Virus record (IMG/VR): IMGVR_UViG_3300035145_000697
Coordinates: 1 to 43,842 of that record
Length of the DNA stretch: 43,842 nt
Source of the DNA: a virus
Taxonomy: Duplodnaviria; Caudoviricetes
Reading direction: 5' to 3' (one strand)
Shown: positions 1 to 18,025 of the stretch, piece by piece
How positions within the stretch are numbered: the first letter of the stretch is position 1
How the letters are laid out: each line of letters begins with the position of its first letter
Translations under genes and position numbers: made by a program
The notes under the pieces: generated by a model
What the model saw: only the letters and a program-made list of their open reading frames with translations
What the model was told of the DNA's origin: nothing
The model's database searches: none

Positions 1-3000
1 CTCAGACATATTGGTTCTGGTGGACTCAAGATATTTGTCGATGGTCGCGCAAGAGTCAATCCTCAGTGGGTTGCAGAGATCCAGATCGAACTCAAGGGTA
101 CTGCACACAGCAGTCTTTCCAAAGTCTTTACTGGAGAAGGAAGAATTCCTTCGTTCGTTGGAAAAGACGAGCGCAGAACATTTGCATACGAAGGCGAAGG
201 TCAACTATTTGGTCTTGGCGGTCTTGTCGAAAGCGTCAGCTTCAATCCAGACGAGAAGCAGATGCTCTTCTCCTTCTTTGGAGACGCAGGCGAATCGTTC
301 GTACCAAACTGGAATGGTACTGCTCGTGCAGAAATCTTTGGTACTGCAGAACCAGTCCTCAGAACATTTGGTTATCAGACAGAAGGAAGTCTGTTTGCAG
401 TCAGTGGCAGCGCAGAAAGAAGAACCTATCATTACAACGATTCTTCTATCAACTTCTATCAGAAGAGAGACTATCAAGGTCTTCCTGCTTCTGGTCAGAT
501 TACCAACATCGCAACCAGTCAAGTTCTTACTGGAACTGCTCCAACTTCAATCATTCAGATTGGATCTCCTGGAGCAGGTGTTGTTGCAACAGTTCAAAAT
601 ACATTCTCCATCAATCCTACTATTGGTTCTGTTGTTACAAGCAGTGTCGATTGTGGATTTATCACAAGCGAGAACAACGAAAGAACTGTCAGAGAAGACT
701 ACGGATTTACTTCCTACCCTGCTTCTCTACTCAGCAAAGTATCCGAATATCCATTCGGAAAAATCTCCAATCTTACCAGCGACTTCAGACAAGTCAAGAC
801 AAACTTCAGTCTGCTGCACATTGGTTCTGGATCTCTATTCACTCTTGTATCTACTACCAGCAGACTTGCACCAGTATACATTGGTTCTGGAAGACTGTTT
901 GGATTTGGTGGAGCAGTCGAGTCTGTTGGAGCAGTACCACCAGCAGAGACATTTACTTACAAGTTTGCTGGCACAGCAGACGAGGCATTTGCTCTCGGAT
1001 ACACTGGTCATGTCGATCTCAGAATCTCTGGTACAGCAGACGAGAGAGCAGCAACCGACACCCTCAGACAAGTCGATGTCGAAATCAGAGGTGGAGCGAA
1101 ATACAGATATGCACCAAACTGGAATGGTTCTGGTGTACTATTCTCTATCGGAGCAAGTTCCGAAGCGATTACAATCGACATTCCAGCGTTCCAGGCAGAT
1201 CTGGTATTCAAGGGAACCGCTGGAATCAGATCCACTATCGTCGAGTCCTTTACTGTACATACCAAACTATCTGGTATTGCAGTCGAGAGACAGACAGACA
1301 ACTATGTCGGTCAAGCAGATCTTCGTGTATTCAACGAGTCTGTTGTACCAATTATTACTCTGTCTCACTTTGGCGAAGGTCGCATCTTCGCACTCAGTGG
1401 AGCAGCAGAATCCTTTACTGCAAATCCAGAAGAGAAGACTGCACTATTCTCTCCAGTTGGTACAGCAGATGTACGAGTTGCTCGTGCAGAATCCTTCACT
1501 GCAAACATCAAACTATCTGGAACAACTGCACCAGAAATCCTTACATTTGCAGAGCAACCATTTGGTACAGTATCTGTATTTGGAGCAGCATCTTACAGAA
1601 TCGTCGATGTTCACCTTGGCGAAGGTACTCTATTCAGTATCGGTCAAAGTGCAGAAGCAATTACGATCAAAATCCCTGCATTCCAGGCAGATCTGGAACT
1701 CAAGGGTGCTGTTGCTCAGAGACGCACATTTGGTGGCAATATTGGATTCGGAAATCTATTTGTTTCTGGAACAACCGCACCAGAACTACTTACATTTGCA
1801 GAGCAACCAGAAGTACAAGTCGAAGTATTTGGAGTTGCAGAAACTCCAAGAGCTCGTGCTTACTCTGTCGAAGGTTCTATCTTCACAGTTGGATTCACCA
1901 ACGAAGCAATCACCAGAAAACTACCTGCATTCCAGGTAGACATTGCATTCCGTCCAGACAAAGCAGGTCTTCGTGCTGGTTACAGAGAAGTCAGTCAGGG
2001 TGGAACCATCCTGTTCTCTGGAGAAGTATCAGAACCAATCCTCACATTTGCAGAGCAACCAACAGTATTCGTCGATATCACAGGTGTTGGCGGAACAACC
2101 AGAGCTCGTGCATACGAAGCTGATGTCTTTATTGGTCACTTTGGTGGTGCTGCTGAGAGTATTACTCTCAAACTACCAGAGTTCCAGTCAGATATTGTAT
2201 TCCGTCCAGAAGCAGCTGGAATCAAGGCATCCGTTACAGAGGTTGGATTCACAACTTCTATTGTACGCGGCGAAGCAAGCGTCAAGTACATTCCAAACTG
2301 GATTGGTTCTGGTACTGTCGATCTATTTGTTTCTACAGAAACAAGTCTTACCAAGATCTACATTGGTACTGGTTCACTCAAGAAATTCTCTGGTGCGGCA
2401 GAGTCTGTCACCTTCAATCCAGAAGAAAGACAACTATTGTTCTCCTTCTCTGGTCAGAGAATTGCAGAAAAAGTTACTTTCAACCCACCAGAAGAAGGAG
2501 CACTTCTCGATTTCACTGGAGATGTATTCGAGAGATTCACACCAAACAATATTGGTACTGGTACAGTATTCACATCTGGTGTATCTACAAATTCTCTCAC
2601 CAAGATTTATATTGGCGATGGTCAACTGTTTGGTCTTGGTGGCGCAGCAGAATCTGTCACATTCAACCCAGACGAGAAAGAAGCACTCTTCGACTTTACT
2701 GGTGTTGGATTTATCAGATCTACAAGATCTTACATTGGCGATGGTTCTCTATTCGCAGTCAACGGTGCTGCAGAATCTACTGTTGTCGTACCACCAGCAG
2801 AAGGACTATTCAAATTCAGCGGTCTTGCTACAGAAAGAACATCCGCAGTCGAGACGGGCGGTGGTATTCTATTCAACTTCGTTACCAGCATCGAGCGTCG
2901 TACATTTGCACACAGCACAACAGGCGCACTTGATATTTCTGGTATCGCTGACATTGCAAGAGCAATTGATTACACTGGATTTGGTAATCTGTTTGCAGTT

Positions 3001-3615
3001 AATGGTGCTGCCGAATCTACAACAAATAGAATCACTGTTGAAGGTGACATTGCATTCAGTGGCGATGCTAAGGTTGTCTCTACCAGAAGATTTATTGGAT
3101 CTGGAACACTATTCGGATTCGACAGTGCAACTGAGTCTAGAACAATCGCTGTTTCTGCGAGAGCAATCTACGACTTTGTTGGTGCTGCTCGTCAGAGATT
3201 CACAAGAACTGTTACATCTGATATCAATCTTGAGATCTCTGGTTCCGCAGTTGAAAGATTCAGCAGAGGTGCGTGGATCACTACTGGTCAGGCTACAGTT
3301 CTTGGAGATACTCAGCACAGCTTTACTCGCACCGTATCTACATTCGGAACTGCAAGGGTACTCAACAAAGATGTTGTTCCTGTACTCACTAGAAATTACT
3401 TCACTACTGATGGGAACATCGATGTTAATGTTCTCACAACATATAAGAGAATTATCAAATACTTCGGTCATACAAACATCGAAGTTGATATTTCTACTAA
3501 GTATGTTGCTCCATTCCAGTTCTACACAGGTAGCACCGACGCAATTGTATTTGGTGAATCGAGAATCAAGTTTGTCCAGGTAACACCTCCAAGATCTTAT
3601 GGATGGATTATCTAA
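1..3615 (+). CDS. Very large repetitive virion structural / fibre-like protein, C-terminal part (5'-truncated by the window)
   Basis: Frame 1 is open from nt 1 (LRHIGSGGLKIF...) through the tracked ORF 262..3615, so ATG 262 is internal. Recurrent motifs: (Y/H)IGxGxLFxxxGAAES, PNWNG, LTFAEQP, IPAFQAD, FNPxE. Lies upstream of tail-fibre-type genes. Confidence 0.75.
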   Translation, partial: LRHIGSGGLKIFVDGRARVNPQWVAEIQIELKGTAHSSLSKVFTGEGRIPSFVGKDERRTFAYEGEGQLFGLGGLVESVSFNPDEKQMLFSFFGDAGESFVPNWNGTARAEIFGTAEPVLRTFGYQTEGSLFAVSGSAERRTYHYNDSSINFYQKRDYQGLPASGQITNIATSQVLTGTAPTSIIQIGSPGAGVVATVQNTFSINPTIGSVVTSSVDCGFITSENNERTVREDYGFTSYPASLLSKVSEYPFGKISNLTSDFRQVKTNFSLLHIGSGSLFTLVSTTSRLAPVYIGSGRLFGFGGAVESVGAVPPAETFTYKFAGTADEAFALGYTGHVDLRISGTADERAATDTLRQVDVEIRGGAKYRYAPNWNGSGVLFSIGASSEAITIDIPAFQADLVFKGTAGIRSTIVESFTVHTKLSGIAVERQTDNYVGQADLRVFNESVVPIITLSHFGEGRIFALSGAAESFTANPEEKTALFSPVGTADVRVARAESFTANIKLSGTTAPEILTFAEQPFGTVSVFGAASYRIVDVHLGEGTLFSIGQSAEAITIKIPAFQADLELKGAVAQRRTFGGNIGFGNLFVSGTTAPELLTFAEQPEVQVEVFGVAETPRARAYSVEGSIFTVGFTNEAITRKLPAFQVDIAFRPDKAGLRAGYREVSQGGTILFSGEVSEPILTFAEQPTVFVDITGVGGTTRARAYEADVFIGHFGGAAESITLKLPEFQSDIVFRPEAAGIKASVTEVGFTTSIVRGEASVKYIPNWIGSGTVDLFVSTETSLTKIYIGTGSLKKFSGAAESVTFNPEERQLLFSFSGQRIAEKVTFNPPEEGALLDFTGDVFERFTPNNIGTGTVFTSGVSTNSLTKIYIGDGQLFGLGGAAESVTFNPDEKEALFDFTGVGFIRSTRSYIGDGSLFAVNGAAESTVVVPPAEGLFKFSGLATERTSAVETGGGILFNFVTSIERRTFAHSTTGALDISGIADIARAIDYTGFGNLFAVNGAAESTTNRITVEGDIAFSGDAKVVSTRRFIGSGTLFGFDSATESRTIAVSARAIYDFVGAARQRFTRTVTSDINLEISGSAVERFSRGAWITTGQATVLGDTQHSFTRTVSTFGTARVLNKDVVPVLTRNYFTTDGNIDVNVLTTYKRIIKYFGHTNIEVDISTKYVAPFQFYTGSTDAIVFGESRIKFVQVTPPRSYGWII
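1186..2062 (+). repeat. Internal nucleotide-level repeats of the giant gene
   Basis: acatttgcagagcaacca occurs near 1543, 1792 and 2044; ttccaggcagatctgg near 1189 and 1681. These encode the TFAEQP and FQADL repeats. Confidence 0.8.
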
Positions 3616-3618
3616 TCC

Positions 3619-3626
3619 TATAAATA
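3619..3626 (+). promoter_or_regulatory. T4-type late promoter TATAAATA
   Basis: Exact gp55 consensus in the intergenic gap, 23 nt before ATG 3650. Confidence 0.85.
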
Positions 3627-3649: not shown

Positions 3650-4111
3650 ATGACAACTCAGGTTCAATTTAGAAGGGGTACTACAGCCGAACACGCACTG
3701 TTTACTGGTGCTGAAGGTGAGCTTACAATTGATACCGATAAGAATATGGCCGTCATTCATGACGGTAGTACGACTGGCGGTTTTGATGTTTTTAGAGCTA
3801 GATGGGAACTAATTAATTCTAGTCAAGTTCTTGGAACCTCACTCAGATATCTTGTAGACTCCTCAAGCGGTCCCCTAACACTTACGCTCCCTCTCTATAA
3901 TAATCAACTTGTTCCAAAAGCAGGTGATGTTATAGAGTTTATCGACGTAAAGTTCACATGGGATATAAATAATATTACTATTGTGGACCCTATCGGCAGA
4001 CAGTTTCAAAATACTTTTGGAGTAGTTGATTCTCCTCTAGTTTTTGATCTGAAAGGCGCAAGTGTTCAGTTAATATGGGAAGGCAGTTACTGGAGGGTAA
4101 TCGTATCATGA
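3650..4111 (+). CDS. Tail-fibre-associated protein (Mtd/hyaluronidase-type N-terminal motif plus a DSSSGPLTLTLP domain)
   Basis: N-terminal QFRRGTTAEH...GELTIDTD...HDG motif typical of phage fibre N-termini. C-terminal half resembles ORF 8731..9054. Confidence 0.65.
   Translation: MTTQVQFRRGTTAEHALFTGAEGELTIDTDKNMAVIHDGSTTGGFDVFRARWELINSSQVLGTSLRYLVDSSSGPLTLTLPLYNNQLVPKAGDVIEFIDVKFTWDINNITIVDPIGRQFQNTFGVVDSPLVFDLKGASVQLIWEGSYWRVIVS
3964..3971 (+). promoter_or_regulatory. Intragenic late promoter TATAAATA
   Basis: Exact consensus about 140 nt upstream of the next gene (4108). Confidence 0.5.
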
Positions 4112-4518
4112 CGATGTACATCAGCGATAGTTACAGAACTTCTGGCGGCGGCGGTGGCGGCACTGGCGGCGGTGGAGGTTTCTCTGGTAATAGCTATGAT
4201 TTGGGTAATGACTTTACTATTCACGCTCTTCGCAGAGATGAAGATGGTATGCTTCGCTACACCAAAATCAGAAGTATTGATGATGAGGTTATTGATTTCC
4301 ACAGACTTGATGGAACTCCTTACCTAGATATTGCGACTGGATTGTATGATTACGTAGAAGAAACTACGGAAGACAAATCATATGTCAATGATCCACAGGA
4401 TAAATATCAACAGTATAGATTTGATAGTAGGAAAATTACCTACTTCATCGATGATGATGGATATTTTGTTATCCGCTTTAACGAAGCATACGATTATACC
4501 ACCGAAGGACCTAAGTAA
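4108..4518 (+). CDS. Hypothetical (probably virion) protein with an N-terminal poly-Gly tract
   Basis: ATG 4108 overlaps the upstream TGA (ATGA coupling), so it is preferred over 4075. SGGGGGGTGGGGG linker followed by an acidic domain. Confidence 0.7.
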   Translation: MTMYISDSYRTSGGGGGGTGGGGGFSGNSYDLGNDFTIHALRRDEDGMLRYTKIRSIDDEVIDFHRLDGTPYLDIATGLYDYVEETTEDKSYVNDPQDKYQQYRFDSRKITYFIDDDGYFVIRFNEAYDYTTEGPK

Positions 4519-9078: not shown

Positions 9079-10005
9079 ATGTCAAGTTTAAGAGATCTTC
9101 TAGATGTGCCATCACTGGATAACTTACCCGTCCAGACGTATTTGGGTCCAGGAGCACATCAGTATCTATTCAGAGGAAACCACTGTTGGGAGTATGGTTC
9201 GAGTCATAACTATGACTGGAACAGATACAGATGGTGTGTTCCTAATGAATGTATTTGTCGCATCAAATGGGAAATTTGGGGCGGCGGTGGCGGCGGTTCA
9301 GGTACATGCTGCTGCTCTATTGCATGGTCTGGACACTCGGGACAGTATATGTCTTGCACACTATGTGCTGCAGACATGGGTGTCTCTCAATTGGATGGTT
9401 GCTGCTACGATATTTGTGTAGCATCTGGCACCTGTCGTCACCCATCTAGAGGTGGTTTTGACGGATGTAAGTCGTATATCAGTGGTCCTGGTCTAAGTGA
9501 CTTCTGTGCTTGTGGTGGATGTCACGGATTCAACTGCTGTCACTGGGTTGATTCTTACTTCTCTTGTAGAACAAGAAAGAATGAAATCGGTCCTGCATGT
9601 AACAGATGGCAGACTGAACACTATCCTGCTAATGATGGTGAAGCCTATAGAGGGTGTGAACAAAAAGGTAAGTTCTTCTGGGGTAACCTAGATTCCTATA
9701 TTCACTATGACTGCAACCCAGGTTGTGGTAACTGGTGTCATAAGAAAGACTATCACCCAGTTGCTCCTATGTTCGGTGCTAGATATGGTATTCACCATGT
9801 TCTGCGTCGTCCAGAGATGCACTCCTGTGGTAGAAGAGCTACATTGTGGTTGACTGGTAATAACGGTGGTTACTCCAGTTCCTGCCATAGAAACGGTCCT
9901 CCTGGTTCTGGTGGTGTTTCTGCTCAGGTATATGGTGGCGGTTGCTGCTGTTCTTCTGAGGGTGCTCACGGACTCGTTAGAGTCACACTTTTCTGCAAAT
10001 CTTAA
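9079..10005 (+). CDS. Gly/Cys-rich putative fibre-tip/adhesin protein, paralog 1
   Basis: EIWGGGGGGSGTCCCS core, about 31 Cys in 308 aa, C-terminal G-x-VRVT strand typical of glycine-rich fibre domains. Confidence 0.65.
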   Translation: MSSLRDLLDVPSLDNLPVQTYLGPGAHQYLFRGNHCWEYGSSHNYDWNRYRWCVPNECICRIKWEIWGGGGGGSGTCCCSIAWSGHSGQYMSCTLCAADMGVSQLDGCCYDICVASGTCRHPSRGGFDGCKSYISGPGLSDFCACGGCHGFNCCHWVDSYFSCRTRKNEIGPACNRWQTEHYPANDGEAYRGCEQKGKFFWGNLDSYIHYDCNPGCGNWCHKKDYHPVAPMFGARYGIHHVLRRPEMHSCGRRATLWLTGNNGGYSSSCHRNGPPGSGGVSAQVYGGGCCCSSEGAHGLVRVTLFCKS

Positions 10006-10017
10006 TCACGGGGAGTA

Positions 10018-10971
10018 ATGGCAAATCTTAGAAGTTTAATTGGTCGAGAGTACGCAAGCACACTGGATAACACCATTGGTGAAGTCGGTGCTCTCGACAT
10101 GAATAACGAAGGAAGAGTGTTCCTCTTCCGTGGTTATTGTGGTGACGGTAACTGCAATAGCAACTACTGGGAGTATTGTTTGCAGCACTGGTGCGTTCCT
10201 TGTGGTACTACTCAAGTAACTTTCGAGTTATGGGGTGGTGGCGGATCTGGTGGTGGCGGTTGCTGCTGTCAGCAAGGTTTCCCTGGTGGTGCTGGATCTT
10301 ATGTAAGAAAGACTCTGCAATATCCACTAGTACAAGGTGGTTGGTGCTACTCACTTTGCACAGCGCCTCCTACATGCTGCTCACGCTGCTGTTGTGGTAT
10401 TCAGGGTTGTAAGACCTGGGTCCAAGGTTGTAACCTAAGCAACCTTTGTGCAGACGGTGGTCTTCCTGGTAAGACTTGCTGTTATGCATTCTGGAGCAAT
10501 GAGTTTAGATGTAAGGACAAAGTTTCCTTTGATGGTTGTGGTGGATGGAGTCTACATAACTGCTGTGCTTGTGCATACGGTGGAGACTTTATGGCGGGTG
10601 GTAAACCTAGCTGGTTTAGAACTTCCAACTCTTCCAGTAACTGTTGGGCAAAAGCAGGATTCGCAATTCCTTACGGTCTAGTTGCTAACGGTCCAACTTA
10701 TCAGACTGTTAACTATTCTGGTGATGCATGTCACCATGAATACATGATGTGTCGTGGTACTACACCATACGCATTCAATGTTCATTGTGGTGGTAGATCT
10801 GGTATCCCTGGTAAGGGTGGTCCTTCTGCAACTTCTTGTGGTGGCGGTTGCTGCTACGGTAGAGGTGGTGCATCTGGAATGATCAAAATCACATATTGCT
10901 CTTGCTGGATTCACGGTTCTGACCGTAGATCTGATGGCAACCAAGCATGTTCCTGTTTCTTCTACAACTGA
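10018..10971 (+). CDS. Gly/Cys-rich putative fibre-tip/adhesin protein, paralog 2
   Basis: ELWGGGGSGGGGCCCQ, CADGG and GMIKITY motifs; about 36 Cys in 317 aa. Confidence 0.65.
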   Translation: MANLRSLIGREYASTLDNTIGEVGALDMNNEGRVFLFRGYCGDGNCNSNYWEYCLQHWCVPCGTTQVTFELWGGGGSGGGGCCCQQGFPGGAGSYVRKTLQYPLVQGGWCYSLCTAPPTCCSRCCCGIQGCKTWVQGCNLSNLCADGGLPGKTCCYAFWSNEFRCKDKVSFDGCGGWSLHNCCACAYGGDFMAGGKPSWFRTSNSSSNCWAKAGFAIPYGLVANGPTYQTVNYSGDACHHEYMMCRGTTPYAFNVHCGGRSGIPGKGGPSATSCGGGCCYGRGGASGMIKITYCSCWIHGSDRRSDGNQACSCFFYN

Positions 10972-10977
10972 TAAATA
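10970..10977 (+). promoter_or_regulatory. Late promoter GATAAATA
   Basis: NATAAATA followed by a GGAGG RBS before ATG 10998. Confidence 0.65.
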
Positions 10978-10997
10978 CTGGAGGATAATAAAGTACA

Positions 10998-11888
10998 ATG
11001 TCAAACCTTAGAGACCTACTCGGTATTGTATCAGAAGACACCCTAAAGGCAGGGGCGGCACCTGATGATGTAACAAAGATCGCAAGACTTCCATCCGAAG
11101 GATATTGTGTGCAATACATCACTGCATATTGTGGTGCTACATGTCAAGAGTATAATACAAATTACTACTACATGCAGTACCCCAACTGGTGTGCTCCTGA
11201 TGGTGTCTGTGACATCATCTTTGAGATCTGGGGCGGCGGTGGCGGCGGCGGTTCTTCCTGCTGCTGTTCACGAGGCGTTCCCGCTGGATCTGGTGCATAC
11301 GCATACAAGCGTCTAGTCGGTAGTCAATATGCTGGTTGCGCTTATCAGATTGAGGTTGGAGAACCTGGATGTGGTAGAATGGGATGGCAGTGTGGAGATC
11401 CTGGAAACTATACATCGATTACTGGTCCTGGTTTGACTAACTTCTGTGCAGACGGTGGTCCTGCAGGATGCTCTTGCTGCTTCCTCTGCTGCTGTACTGC
11501 TCACTACATCAGTCTATCTAACTGTCCTTATGGTTGCTGTGCTTGCTACTACGGTGCAGACGGCGGTTCTAGAGGAGTCCCTGGATACACATACATGTGG
11601 TGTTATAACAATCACTGCTGGAACAAGCAGATGATTGCTTACCCAGGCGGTCTAGTCAACGGTAAAGGCGGTTGGTTGCCTGGTAACCAATGCGAAGATA
11701 GTGGATGTGGTTATTGCCTAATGCATTGGGCAGTAGACCAGCTACACTGGGGCGGTGGACATAGTGAAACTAACTATGTACCTGGCGTCGGTGGTGCTTC
11801 TGGTTGGACTTGTGGTGGTTGCTGCCATGGTCAGAACGGTAATCCAGGTATGGTTCGCATTAGTTACAAGTACGACGAGAACTTGTAA
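10998..11888 (+). CDS. Gly/Cys-rich putative fibre-tip/adhesin protein, paralog 3
   Basis: EIWGGGGGGGSSCCCS, CADGG and GMVRISY motifs; about 30 Cys in 296 aa. Confidence 0.65.
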   Translation: MSNLRDLLGIVSEDTLKAGAAPDDVTKIARLPSEGYCVQYITAYCGATCQEYNTNYYYMQYPNWCAPDGVCDIIFEIWGGGGGGGSSCCCSRGVPAGSGAYAYKRLVGSQYAGCAYQIEVGEPGCGRMGWQCGDPGNYTSITGPGLTNFCADGGPAGCSCCFLCCCTAHYISLSNCPYGCCACYYGADGGSRGVPGYTYMWCYNNHCWNKQMIAYPGGLVNGKGGWLPGNQCEDSGCGYCLMHWAVDQLHWGGGHSETNYVPGVGGASGWTCGGCCHGQNGNPGMVRISYKYDENL

Positions 11889-14038: not shown

Positions 14039-15733
14039 ATGATTATTCTTGCAGTTGCTCGTGGTCATAATGGCAGCACGACACTCATGGTTGATGGTGA
14101 GATTGTTTTTTACTTAGAAGAAGAACGCCTATCTCGCTTCAAATATGATGGTGCCCCTTTGATGGGTATGCTCAAAGCATTTGAGTATGTTGACCATATT
14201 GATCACCTAGTTGTATGTCACACCCACCGTGACGGTCCTCAGCTTGATTGGACAGGTGAGGACATGTATGAGGGTCTAATTCGTAAGATCGCTCGTAAGC
14301 GTTTTGAATTTAAGACGCATTTCATCGATACTACACACCACGAAATGCACGCTGCATGTGGTTTCTATAACTCTGGTTTTGAAACTGCTGCATGTGTCAT
14401 TGCTGATGGTGCTGGTAGTTTCCTCAGGATGGAAGCAGTTCCTGATACTCTGTATGAGTTTGAGACTATTTTCCAAGCATCATATCCTGATGACTTTGAT
14501 ACAGTCTGGAAGCACATCGGAACCAAAGCTGCTATTGGATTCCATGAACCAGAACCTAATCACTATGTGACTGAGTATCCTGGTCATACTAAGATGTATG
14601 AAGCAGTAACTCAATACTGTGGGTTCCCTGCTATTGAAGCAGGTAAACTTATGGGTCTTGCTCCATACGGTAAACCAAATGACGAACTGCCTTCCTTCTT
14701 TAAGGATGGTTGGGGTAACCGTGACTTGATTGTTCCTACATATCCAAATGCTGCAGCAATCAATGTTGAGCGTTTCCCTATCCTCAAGCAAGATTCCCGT
14801 GAGCATATTCGTGGAGAAGCAATCCCACAATATACTGACATTCAGAAAGACATCGCATATAAGATTCAGGAAGAAACTTCCGATCGTATGTGTGACTTGA
14901 TCGAGAAAGCAGTTGAAATCACTGGTGAGAAAAACATTGTTGTGTGTGGTGGATATGGTCTGAACTGTGTTGCCAACTACAAGTATTGGCAGCGTTTCCC
15001 TGACCTGAATATCTATTGCGAACCTATCTCTCATGATGGTGGTACATCTATTGGTGGCGCAAAGTATATCTACCATCAGGTAACTGAGAACGAGAAACCA
15101 GAACCACAAGCATCTGTTTACTATGGTCCTCAGTATGATGTTGATACATACGAATCTGATCTAGCAGGTCTTGATGTTACTGATGCATCCTATGAGTCTG
15201 TAGCACAATTGATTCGTGATGGTAATATCGTCACCATTTATCAAGGTCGCTCTGAGGGTGGTCCTCGTGCTCTTGGTAACCGTTCTATCTTGTTTGATCC
15301 TACGATTCAAGATGGCAAAGATCATGTCAATGCAGTCAAGCGTCGTGAATGGTTCCGTCCTTTCGCTTGCTCTATCAAGAAAGACAAAGTACATGATTGG
15401 TTTGATCTAGCAGGTCGCGAAGAGACACCTCATATGATGTATGCAGTCAAGTGTCATGATGGTGTGGAAGAGAAGATTCCTTCTGTCATCCATGTTGACA
15501 ACACTTGTAGAATCCAGACCGTTACACCAGAGCAGAATGAACACTACTACAATCTCATTGATGCATTCGATAAGATTGCGGATGTCCCTATTTTGTTTAA
15601 CACTTCTTTTAATTTGGGTGGAGACCCGCTGGTCGAGACAATCTCAGATGCAATCGACACTCTGAGTCGTAGTCAGATCGAGTATATGTATCTTCCTGAA
15701 ATTCAGAAGTTGGTGAAAGTTCCTAATGAGTGA
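14039..15733 (+). CDS. Carbamoyltransferase, NodU/CmcH family (copy 1)
   Basis: EEERLSRFK, HHEMHAACGFY, DGAG, GKLMGLAPYG, GGYGLNCVAN, EGGPRALGNRSIL, KRREWFRPFA, HVDNTCRIQT, NTSFNLGGDP motifs. Confidence 0.93.
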   Translation: MIILAVARGHNGSTTLMVDGEIVFYLEEERLSRFKYDGAPLMGMLKAFEYVDHIDHLVVCHTHRDGPQLDWTGEDMYEGLIRKIARKRFEFKTHFIDTTHHEMHAACGFYNSGFETAACVIADGAGSFLRMEAVPDTLYEFETIFQASYPDDFDTVWKHIGTKAAIGFHEPEPNHYVTEYPGHTKMYEAVTQYCGFPAIEAGKLMGLAPYGKPNDELPSFFKDGWGNRDLIVPTYPNAAAINVERFPILKQDSREHIRGEAIPQYTDIQKDIAYKIQEETSDRMCDLIEKAVEITGEKNIVVCGGYGLNCVANYKYWQRFPDLNIYCEPISHDGGTSIGGAKYIYHQVTENEKPEPQASVYYGPQYDVDTYESDLAGLDVTDASYESVAQLIRDGNIVTIYQGRSEGGPRALGNRSILFDPTIQDGKDHVNAVKRREWFRPFACSIKKDKVHDWFDLAGREETPHMMYAVKCHDGVEEKIPSVIHVDNTCRIQTVTPEQNEHYYNLIDAFDKIADVPILFNTSFNLGGDPLVETISDAIDTLSRSQIEYMYLPEIQKLVKVPNE

Positions 15734-16367
15734 TCACTTTGAAGATATCGTGGAGATTGATAATTTTATCTCTCCACGGTATGCCGAGCACTTAAAACAA
15801 ACGGTGATGGATGCAAAATTTCCTTGGTATTTTAACCGAGACATCACATCACCACTGTGGTTCTGGCAACAGAATCATTTGAACGACTCCACCCTTGAGG
15901 TGGAGGAGTCTTCCTTCACTGGGTTCATGCACATCCTTTGGGGTAGAGAGGGAAAAGAATCGGATTTTTATGATATCTTCGTTCCCCTTCTATATTCAAT
16001 GGAAGAAAAAATCAATATGACCATCGCGGAACTTGTTCAATTAAGATTGGGTCTCTTTACATTGAACACGAACCGTCAACCATATCATGTTCCACATGTG
16101 GATTATCAAGATGATGGGTTGAAATACACGGCAATCTATTATCTAAATGATAGTGATGGTGATACTTATTTCTTTAATGAATTTCTAGATCCAAATATCA
16201 AGAGATTTATTAATGGGTATGATCCCAGTCTCTTTACTGTTGCAAAATCAGTCAAACCTAAACAGGGGAAACTGGTATTGTTTGATGGTAGAAGATATCA
16301 TGCAAGCTCTTATCCAGAGAGCACTCCCGAACGAATGGTTTTGAATATTAATTTTGCTCCTGTATAA
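15726..16367 (+). CDS. 2OG-Fe(II) oxygenase superfamily protein
   Basis: PHVD...AIYYLNDSDGDT...PKQGKLVLFDG..YH...R motif set (HxD...H triad). Confidence 0.85.
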   Translation: MSDHFEDIVEIDNFISPRYAEHLKQTVMDAKFPWYFNRDITSPLWFWQQNHLNDSTLEVEESSFTGFMHILWGREGKESDFYDIFVPLLYSMEEKINMTIAELVQLRLGLFTLNTNRQPYHVPHVDYQDDGLKYTAIYYLNDSDGDTYFFNEFLDPNIKRFINGYDPSLFTVAKSVKPKQGKLVLFDGRRYHASSYPESTPERMVLNINFAPV

Positions 16368-16369
16368 TT

Positions 16370-18025
16370 ATGGCGTGGATACTTGGTGTAAATCGATCTC
16401 ATGATGGTGGTATTACTTTATTGAAAGACAATAAAGTTGTTCTTTCAATCCAAGAGGAGAGACTTACTCATATCAAATATGATAATGAGTGTTTCTATTC
16501 TTTGGATAAAGTTGCAGAGTACACAAAAGTAATCGATGTCTGTGTGTATACACATCTGTATAATCGCAGAAATGATTTTGGACCATATTTTAAATATATC
16601 AAACGCAAACTTGGACTGCATGTCAAGAATTATCTTGAAGCGAAGGACTACCATCACTCCCTCCATGCAGCATGTGCATACTTTCATTCTCCTTTTGAAG
16701 ATGCAACTGTTCTAGTAATCGATGGAGCAGGTGCTGACCATGAATATGGTAAGGAGAATGAGAGTATCATTCATATTCCTGGTAGCGCAGCAAACGCAGA
16801 GTGTTTATATCAGAGTGTTGTTGGATATGTTGGTTCTAAGTTAAAGGCGGATGCACCATCATATGTTGATCCAGAACCTCGCATTGGTGCGGGATATGTT
16901 TACTCAGGTATTACAAAGTATCTTGGATGGGATGGTCTTGAGTGTGGTAAAACCATGGGACTTTCTTCATATGGAAAACCAAATCCAAAGATTAAATCTA
17001 TCCTAGATGAAGGTGGTGGCAGATACCAAGAGTTTGGACTGGCAGATTTTAACAATCACAAAGAAGTGATGGTGGTAGTCCGTCCATATGAATACATTTG
17101 TTCTGCTAGAGATGAGAAAGAAAAGTTTCAAAGAGATGCTGATCTAGCATATAAACTTCAGTCTGAGTTTGAAGATTATGTCTACATGAGAATTATGCAG
17201 GCATATCAATTATCGAATTGTCCTAATATTATTTTCACTGGTGGTTGTGCATTAAACTGTGTTGCCAATTATAGAATTAAGAAACGATTGCCACCAGAAA
17301 TTAATCTATATGTTGAACCAATTTCCAGTGATTCTGGTATTTCTCTTGGTGCTGCATATATTGGTTACAATAAAGAGATGCCAATGCGTTTTGCTAAGAA
17401 ACCATTGATGCCTATTGATAATATTTACTTTGGTCAACAACTTAAATACGAAGAAAAGTATGAGAATGAGAGACCAGCAACTCCATCTGATGTTGCAAAG
17501 TTAATTGCTGATGGAAACATTGTCGCTATGGCACAAGGTAGATCTGAAAATGGTCCCCGTGCTCTAGGAAATCGTTCCATTCTTTATGATCCTCGTGATC
17601 CTAATGGTAAAGATAAAGTAAACACTGTCAAGAAACGAGAAAATTGGAGACCATTTGCTGGCACGGTCATGCTAGAATATGCACATGAGTGGTTTGATAT
17701 GGCTGGTTTGCCAGAGTCTCCATACATGATGTATGCTATGGAAGTTCTCAGACCAGATGAAATTCCATGTATTACTCATGTAGATAATACCTGTAGGATT
17801 CAGACTCTTACAGAAAAGCAGAATCCAAACTACTATAAATTAATCAGTGAGTTTAATAATCTCACTGGGGTTCCTATTTTATTCAACACATCTTTCAATC
17901 TTGCTGGTGATACTATTGTAGAAACTATGGAAGATGCTTTCAATACTATGAATGAAAGTTTGATTGAATATCTATATCTACCTGAAGAAAACAAATTATT
18001 ATATTTCCCCAATGAAACTAACTGA
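16370..18025 (+). CDS. Carbamoyltransferase, NodU/CmcH family (copy 2)
   Basis: HDGG, QEERL, HHSLHAACA, DGAG, GKTMGLSSYG, GGCALNCVAN, ENGPRALGNRSIL, RPFA, NTSFNLAG motifs. Confidence 0.93.
   Translation: MAWILGVNRSHDGGITLLKDNKVVLSIQEERLTHIKYDNECFYSLDKVAEYTKVIDVCVYTHLYNRRNDFGPYFKYIKRKLGLHVKNYLEAKDYHHSLHAACAYFHSPFEDATVLVIDGAGADHEYGKENESIIHIPGSAANAECLYQSVVGYVGSKLKADAPSYVDPEPRIGAGYVYSGITKYLGWDGLECGKTMGLSSYGKPNPKIKSILDEGGGRYQEFGLADFNNHKEVMVVVRPYEYICSARDEKEKFQRDADLAYKLQSEFEDYVYMRIMQAYQLSNCPNIIFTGGCALNCVANYRIKKRLPPEINLYVEPISSDSGISLGAAYIGYNKEMPMRFAKKPLMPIDNIYFGQQLKYEEKYENERPATPSDVAKLIADGNIVAMAQGRSENGPRALGNRSILYDPRDPNGKDKVNTVKKRENWRPFAGTVMLEYAHEWFDMAGLPESPYMMYAMEVLRPDEIPCITHVDNTCRIQTLTEKQNPNYYKLISEFNNLTGVPILFNTSFNLAGDTIVETMEDAFNTMNESLIEYLYLPEENKLLYFPNETN

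Follow-up and report, generated by a model that had tools for sequence, protein, structure and literature searches.

The virus record IMGVR_UViG_3300035145_000697 (Duplodnaviria; Caudoviricetes) was analysed over positions 1 to 43,842 (hereafter the window, 43,842 nt), a single 43.8-kb contig that carried T4-like phage tail, neck, terminase, sheath, portal and protease genes. The window opened inside a giant glycine-rich repeat gene (Table 1), assigned to PHROG 11522 by profile match and gene neighbourhood, whose product ended in the family motif PP.[ST]YGWII and was about 2,094 residues long at full length, as seen in near-identical metagenomic copies. Relatives in the family reached about 3,700 residues, and the C-terminus was conserved among them. 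Since the only matches to the gene among 50,697 phage records came from Synechococcus phages S-CAM1 and S-CAM3 (11 records), the host is likely to be marine cyanobacteria. The named homologues, S-CAM1 AOV57854.1 and S-CAM3 AOV58838.1, were both hypothetical proteins, as were all Atlas matches of the repeat protein. In this gene family the two other sense frames have been purged of nearly all stop codons along some 3 kb. The purge is real and strong, and the edge that it shows at position 2931 of the window is a lapse in one frame and one lineage.

Frames 2 and 3 of the window corresponded to the +1 and -1 frames relative to the main frame of the repeat gene. Frame 3 contained 2 stops in 1-2930 (at 2121 and 2154), none in 2157-2930, and 22 from 2931 to 3555; frame 2 contained stops solely at 1937 and 3581. 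Synonymous shuffles of positions 1-2928 gave 26.5 expected +1 stops (1 observed) and 68.5 expected -1 stops (2 observed), that is, 3 off-frame stops against about 95 expected, a roughly thirtyfold purge. For positions 2929-3612 the +1 stops were still few (1 vs. 3.9 expected), and the -1 stops were as many as the shuffles predicted (22 vs. 25.0). At “risk” sites, defined as those where a synonymous T would create an off-frame stop, frame-3 stops were present in 2/186 before 2929 and 22/50 after it (Fisher p=3.6e-15), the latter rate not differing from the 582/1069 found in eight of the window's other virion genes (p=0.16). Frame 2 did not switch at 2929 (1/120 before vs. 1/33 after; p=0.39), and in the last 228 codons it was still depleted with respect to the same eight genes (183/735; p=0.0009). 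The minus strand of the repeat gene had an ordinary stop density. The edge at 2931 is therefore real and confined to the -1 frame, and beyond it the stops return to neutral density, not above.

The first-pass annotation of the sequence had described off-frame stop avoidance that switched off abruptly about 700 nt before the gene end. Its individual observations were reproduced: the absence of frame-3 stops in 2157-2930, their appearance at 2931, 2949, 2967, 2985, 3000, 3027, 3039, 3045, 3069 and onwards (22 in all, to 3555), the codon pair GTC AAC at about 2755 and GTT AAT at about 2998, and a frame 2 open to 3583. Shuffles and orthologues also bore out its view that position, and not amino-acid content, governs the constraint, which acts through the choice among synonymous codons. 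The “switch” itself held for frame 3 (-1) but not for frame 2 (+1), so that its title overstated the case.

The purge was a property of the family. The locus set comprised 245 loci and the window; the gene was present in 228 of them; 172 included its 3' end and spanned 3,600 nt or more, and 109 of the 172 were distinct. Ninety-five of the 109 combined a +1 run of 400 codons or more with a -1 run of 150 or more, and ten members (L091, L093, L094, L096, L097, L098, L102, L104, L106 and L107) showed little or no purge. The flanks of 228 loci, 2.79 Mb in all with redundancy, contained no run of 300 nt free of stops in all frames. The two off-frames were constrained apart: the +1 frame was still empty where -1 stops were normal, and in such +1-only segments the -1 frame carried 627 TAA, 534 TAG and 1,384 TGA over 24,864 codons. 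The purge was limited to the sense strand and to stop triplets, TGG not being depleted, and the 5' half of the repeat gene, furthest from the end, was the least purged. In S-CAM1 this 5' half (L001:16362-19480) showed partly open stretches with a 738-nt period, its +1 stops lying mostly in DYG modules. Variation within 46 loci of 8 clades agreed with the counts. Minor C-to-T alleles in open zones were present at 6/227 risk sites vs. 80/285 non-risk sites, and in closed zones at 27/96 vs. 62/253; stop-making alleles are thus about tenfold depleted, and selection on stops is ongoing.

Table 1. Features of the repeat gene and of its 3' flank in the window.
Feature	Positions	Strand	Remarks
Giant glycine-rich repeat gene, 3' 1,204 codons	1..3615	+	PHROG 11522, profile match E=1.7e-199
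Frame 2 (+1) open run	2..1939	+	Begins about 124 nt upstream of the window edge in full-length relatives
Frame 3 (-1) open run	3..2123	+	No in-frame ATG; begins 513-624 nt upstream of the window edge in relatives
Frame 2 (+1) second open run	1940..3583	+	Covers the whole stretch that had been called switched off; 0 stops vs. about 6 expected in loci L003 and L005
Hole: two frame-3 TGA stops after the last TFAEQP repeat	2121..2156	+	
Last frame-3 open run of the window lineage, 258 codons	2157..2933	+	No in-frame ATG, GTG or TTG
Neutral-density block of 22 frame-3 stops, where the purge has lapsed in this lineage	2931..3557	+	-1 slip-prone junctions at 0/229 codons
TATAAATA	3619..3626	+	Match to the T4 late promoter consensus
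Downstream tail protein	3650..4111	+	PHROG 9648, Mtd_N domain

Several general causes were rejected. A long-gene effect did not account for the purge, as S-CAM1 genes of 3,701, 3,033 and 2,710 codons had 4.1-4.4 (+1) and 10.1-11.5 (-1) stops per 100 codons, vs. 0.7 and 2.6 here. Frame-blind avoidance of motifs (by nuclease, UV or mutation bias) was discarded because TGG was not depleted and the other frame was rich in the same triplets. An origin by frame-switched ancestry or from donor cassettes was rejected on the absence of any match between alternative-frame and main-frame proteins (0 in 57 loci) and of any copy elsewhere in S-CAM1; nearly all repeat spacings were multiples of 3, which was also counted against such ancestry. 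Splicing, editing and phase-variable indels were set aside on the contigs of 4 RNA and 4 DNA runs, which contained no frameshifting indel or well-supported joint, a weak test inasmuch as contigs drop rare variants; these contigs had one locally compensated indel pair (3292/3298), and their joints were short-sided and likely derived from relatives. Coupling or polarity was likewise rejected: TATAAATA, a match to the T4 late promoter consensus, follows the stop codon, and 99 of the 109 loci had a match to [ACT]ATAAATA no more than 40 nt from the stop, so that the next gene, having its own late-promoter match, need not depend on off-frame ribosomes. A literature search, chiefly outside subscription papers, returned no description of such an off-frame stop purge.

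Thirty-eight loci ending in YGWII aligned collinearly with the window, five of the window lineage and 33 others. In the stretch homologous to 2929-3450 the five carried 16-21 stops at 39-40 risk sites, and the 33 other orthologues had no stop (29 loci), one (2 loci) or seven (2 loci). Across the 109 loci the last -1 run ended 121-240 nt before the stop codon in 58; in 20 it came to within 120 nt of the stop codon or ran past it, and in 10, namely the five of the window lineage and five of a distant clade, it ended 661-720 nt short. S-CAM1 and S-CAM3, which share the protein family, the gene neighbourhood and the purge with the window, differed from it at this end: both off-frames of S-CAM1 were open until about 60 nt before the gene end, with no 700-nt stop-rich zone, and the -1 frame of S-CAM3 likewise closed only some 60 nt ahead of the stop. 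In the L118 clade a hole of 1-4 stops at 2881-2923 was followed by a frame open again until about 3478. The window lineage had diverged at 3019-3090, where its relatives have SPE and TPR.R motifs in common. The simplest history, as read from these alignments, would make 2931 the edge of a lineage-specific loss of the last open -1 segment, with third positions drifting back to neutral.

The products of the alternative frames showed no sign of selection. Differences at fourfold sites amounted to 11.0% where both frames were open, 9.9% where only the +1 frame was, and 10.2% where neither was (21 pairs), and alternative-frame peptides are without sequence constraint; synonymous variation in the main frame was not reduced as dual coding would require, and no start codon with a recognisable product was found. 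Synonymous choices that do not concern stops were mostly the same in open segments (1 of 16 contexts strongly different and two more weakly), T before GC or GT, which gives Cys in the -1 frame, being somewhat lower there. The alternative frames had no Pfam match above cut-off, and the 546-aa +1 frame had no match in the Atlas. Runs in the +1 frame held many ATG, GTG and TTG codons; -1 runs frequently had none of the three, among them the last one of the window (2157-2930).

Signals that might direct ribosomes into the open frames were searched for in 99 loci forming 21 groups, the ten unpurged loci having been dropped from the motif search onward. Tandem slippery heptamers occurred at 0.0 per 100 codons in the open regions of the 21 groups, no amino-acid trimer predicted openness, no synonymous-conservation peak was found at run starts, and 72-nt windows of 7 orthologues gave no shared hairpin or folding dip (pseudoknots and long-range pairs being outside this test). 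No leaky-stop bias was seen at run ends, and avoidance of in-frame start codons, as expected for reinitiation, was not specific to the purged part. The one lead came from slip-prone -1 junctions, defined as A_AAR, C_CCN, T_TTY and G_GGN, at which a single tRNA could re-pair one base back. Eighteen groups contained sufficient codons of both segment types, and in 15 of these the junctions were rarer where -1 stops occurred; the effect was about twofold, with controls mostly flat, and in the window the junctions numbered 15/933 vs. 0/229 in 2931-3557. The neighbour-distance table was symmetric, which is compatible with sharp segments and with the tail-length model described below. As a separate observation, the top window of synonymous conservation was a nearly invariant (P/S)-R-K-P codon string that members of the FQPP clade carry a short way upstream of their last DYG module (in L029 some 2,760 nt ahead of the stop, and likewise in its relatives).

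Because the constraint is frame-specific and sequence-free, ribosomes probably read the off-frames, and it would be the location of stops that matters. Our leading explanation, which we hold tentatively, is that 2931 is the edge of a lineage lapse in a family-wide purge that would likely keep slipped ribosomes from releasing truncated, short-tailed chains predicted to disturb assembly. Ribosomes would enter the off-frames by ordinary, dispersed slippage in the C-terminal repeats of the protein, putatively a fibre or stalk of the virion that its conserved C-terminus would anchor, a role that is a guess from the gene neighbourhood. A stop within a few codons of the slip would release a truncated but assembly-competent chain, disturbing particle assembly; a chain with a long junk tail would likely be destroyed or excluded, and weak selection may thus keep slipped ribosomes going. 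Non-programmed -1 slippage in overexpressed E. coli genes is reported at 1e-4 to more than 1e-3 per codon (PMC10861913). In the window a slip in codons 1-976 would give a tail of about 300 codons on average and a -1 slip in the last 228 codons one of 10. If tail length is decisive, an isolated stop would be costly and a stop beside another nearly free, so that the sequence may sort into sharply bounded open and stop-rich blocks without any signal at their borders; the +1 frame, in which risk sites are few, would stay open throughout, and the -1 frame would flip between states by lineage, the last 228 window codons being one flipped -1 block. A toy model in which each stop was charged for the codons within a fixed distance upstream produced an open +1 frame, a blocky -1 frame and sharp edges with no signal, and a toy slip-back model was all-or-none, with no patches; both speak to plausibility only. 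Somewhat less probable than this explanation is the wider proposition that ribosomes use all three sense frames of the repeat region, with selection acting on where off-frame ribosomes end and not on their products. Synonymous codons would then hold an error-management layer with bistable blocks, and the window lineage would have exchanged the lack of -1 stops for a lack of -1 slip-prone junctions in its last 228 codons.

A number of results weigh against the tail-length explanation. The toy tail model was patchy only at S of about 0.13-0.22 per codon, which amounts to fine-tuning across many lineages, and the window lineage tolerates chains cut short within the last 228 codons, close to full length. 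Reported selection for cryptic stops and short tails has the opposite direction (10.1101/2025.10.02.679949). The slip-junction signal was modest: with one locus per group it was symmetric and not biased downstream, in the pooled, non-independent set it was downstream-only just for Lys and Phe and absent for Gly, and for Lys it was weaker in a second draw (p=0.21). Two structure predictions of the repeat protein, on which its role or fold might be based, had low confidence (pLDDT 38 and 27). Holes recurred at the same places: at 2050-2152 a -1 stop was present in 26 of the 38 YGWII-group loci, at several different codons, and further holes recurred in divergent lineages at about 2450-2555 and at 2857-2930. 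Lastly, 13 S-CAM1-like loci had a lone TAG at one column with purged codons on either side, a pattern more in keeping with defined segments than with free drift.

Recurrent holes, and in particular that at 2050-2152, suggest defined segments, so that programmed or semi-programmed recoding stays the main rival, an unlikely one in our estimate but one to be taken seriously. Ribosomes would enter the +1 and -1 frames at several defined repeat sites and leave by defined exits (slipping back, shifting on or terminating), with the isoform sequence immaterial; the window lineage would have lost its last entry site, leaving 2931-3557 neutral. This is consistent with holes that stand at homologous places with different codons, with the many -1 runs that stop just past the last TF[AS]EQP repeat, with avoidance that resumes at once after single stops, and with the divergence of the window lineage at 3019-3090, the very site of the motifs shared by its relatives. 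The failure to find slippery heptamers, a predictive trimer, a conserved hairpin or a synonymous-conservation peak at run starts argues against it, as do edges that wander by 70-90 nt between lineages and the slip-back model, which made no patches. Less probable still are nested open frames with internal starts whose translation would be useful in its own right, for example by covering or unfolding the mRNA, as proposed for ambigrammatic narnaviruses; an open frame with no peptide constraint is the narnavirus signature (PMC8155312; 10.1101/2020.12.18.423567), and the +1 runs offer many start codons. Against this reading, the RNA is already covered by ribosomes in the main frame, -1 runs often have no start codon of the three kinds, and the late-promoter match of the next gene means that no coupling or polarity is needed.

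True overlapping genes with functional +1 and -1 proteins are very improbable. Runs of 250-1,080 codons maintained in 95 of the 109 loci would suit them, and so would the somewhat lower frequency of -1 Cys contexts, but the fourfold-site comparison largely refutes them: synonymous variation was not lowered and had no conservative bias. The want of Pfam and Atlas matches, run ends that differ by lineage, and stop alleles that segregate at about one tenth of the neutral rate point the same way. We give equally little credence to the proposal of the first-pass annotation that termination is harmful only far from the gene end, which would make 2931-3615 a selected release zone. The edge is sharp, most loci do have -1 stops in their last 60-240 nt, and the run of another clade ends at -679 to -682; yet frame 2 was purged throughout, and the boundary was not conserved, an outcome that the annotation had itself named as refuting, with 31 of the 33 orthologues outside the lineage having 0-1 stops in the homologous stretch, which refutes a general rule. 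The stops after 2931 occurred at the neutral rate and behaved as neutral alleles, with no enrichment. Distance from the natural end also failed as a rule on S-CAM1, which is open almost to the end and whose longer genes are unpurged, and on the 5' half of the gene. The distance does recur: in L006 and its relatives L076, L078, L082 and L085, about 24% identical to the window protein, the last -1 run also ended 679-682 nt before the stop (L006:10600-10605), and 10 of the 109 loci share it. Hardly credible, finally, is that the edge arose by recombination, with an unpurged lineage as donor of the 3' end, or through faulty assembly. The family is mosaic, with identity varying along pairs, but identity of the window to L109 and L181 continued across the edge (52-53% before 2929, 55-56% just after), so that no junction lies at 2931. 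The window stops after it fell at codons collinear with purged ones (the risk context was shared by L109 and L181 at 12 of 18, with T at 0 of the 12), four further distinct loci of the window lineage had the same edge, and single contigs from four DNA runs spanned it.

In phage structural genes, the programmed frameshifts of lambda G/GT and T7 10A/10B use one slippery site and a conserved extension. They resemble the present family in that an alternative frame is kept open in a virion-assembly gene; here, two frames were open, no conserved site was found and the peptide was unconstrained. Ambigrammatic narnaviruses also keep a second frame free of stops over kilobases by synonymous choice with no sign of selection on the peptide (10.1101/2020.12.18.423567; PMC8155312). 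Theirs is one reverse-strand frame of an RNA genome; here both sense off-frames were involved, in part of one gene of a double-stranded DNA phage and patchily by lineage, and the open frames with no peptide selection were not accompanied by a stop-free reverse-strand frame. The ambush or hidden-stop hypothesis likewise concerns selection on off-frame stops in response to frameshift errors (PMC8410138; 10.1101/2025.10.02.679949), but the sign is opposite here and the effect far larger: in place of an excess over the codon-usage expectation, there was a deficit in 1-2928 (3 stops vs. about 95) and neutrality in 2929-3612.

Further features were recorded at the locus and in the repeat gene. At the hole equivalent to 2050-2152 after the last TFAEQP repeat (L001:21221-21223), L147, in which the segment has been replaced, carried another stop, 27 nt farther upstream, as though termination after that repeat were favoured. 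The product of window 1-3612 contained one Met and one Cys in 1,204 residues, and Met was low family-wide; no solved structure related by sequence was found (best E=0.25), and a literature search returned nothing on the repeat protein or on truncated fibres. The genes following the repeat gene were, in order, PHROG 9648, 8997 and 9851, as in the tail region of S-CAM1. The start of the PHROG 8997 gene had a poly-glycine run of GGC/GGT (window 4144-4178), where one RNA contig was 3 bases short. Three PHROG 4205 paralogues lay in tandem at 9079-11888 (function unassigned in PHROG), and 14039-18025 held two Nol-like carbamoyltransferases, both with a 2OG-Fe(II) oxygenase-like gene directly after them. 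No tRNA or Rfam match was found in the window.

Since neutral or favoured off-frame stops are what theory and surveys lead one to expect, a roughly thirtyfold purge in one gene family with no second protein is an unusually strong natural signal on the fate of frameshifted ribosomes. To it the present analysis adds the reading of the edge as a lineage loss, the finding that the two frames are independent, the test on alleles and the lead from slip-prone junctions. The boundary at 2931 is not a functional element but a natural experiment, in which the same protein segment is purged and unpurged in related phages, and the ten unpurged family members provide natural negative controls. As S-CAM1 and S-CAM3 are in culture, the cost of off-frame termination would be directly measurable.

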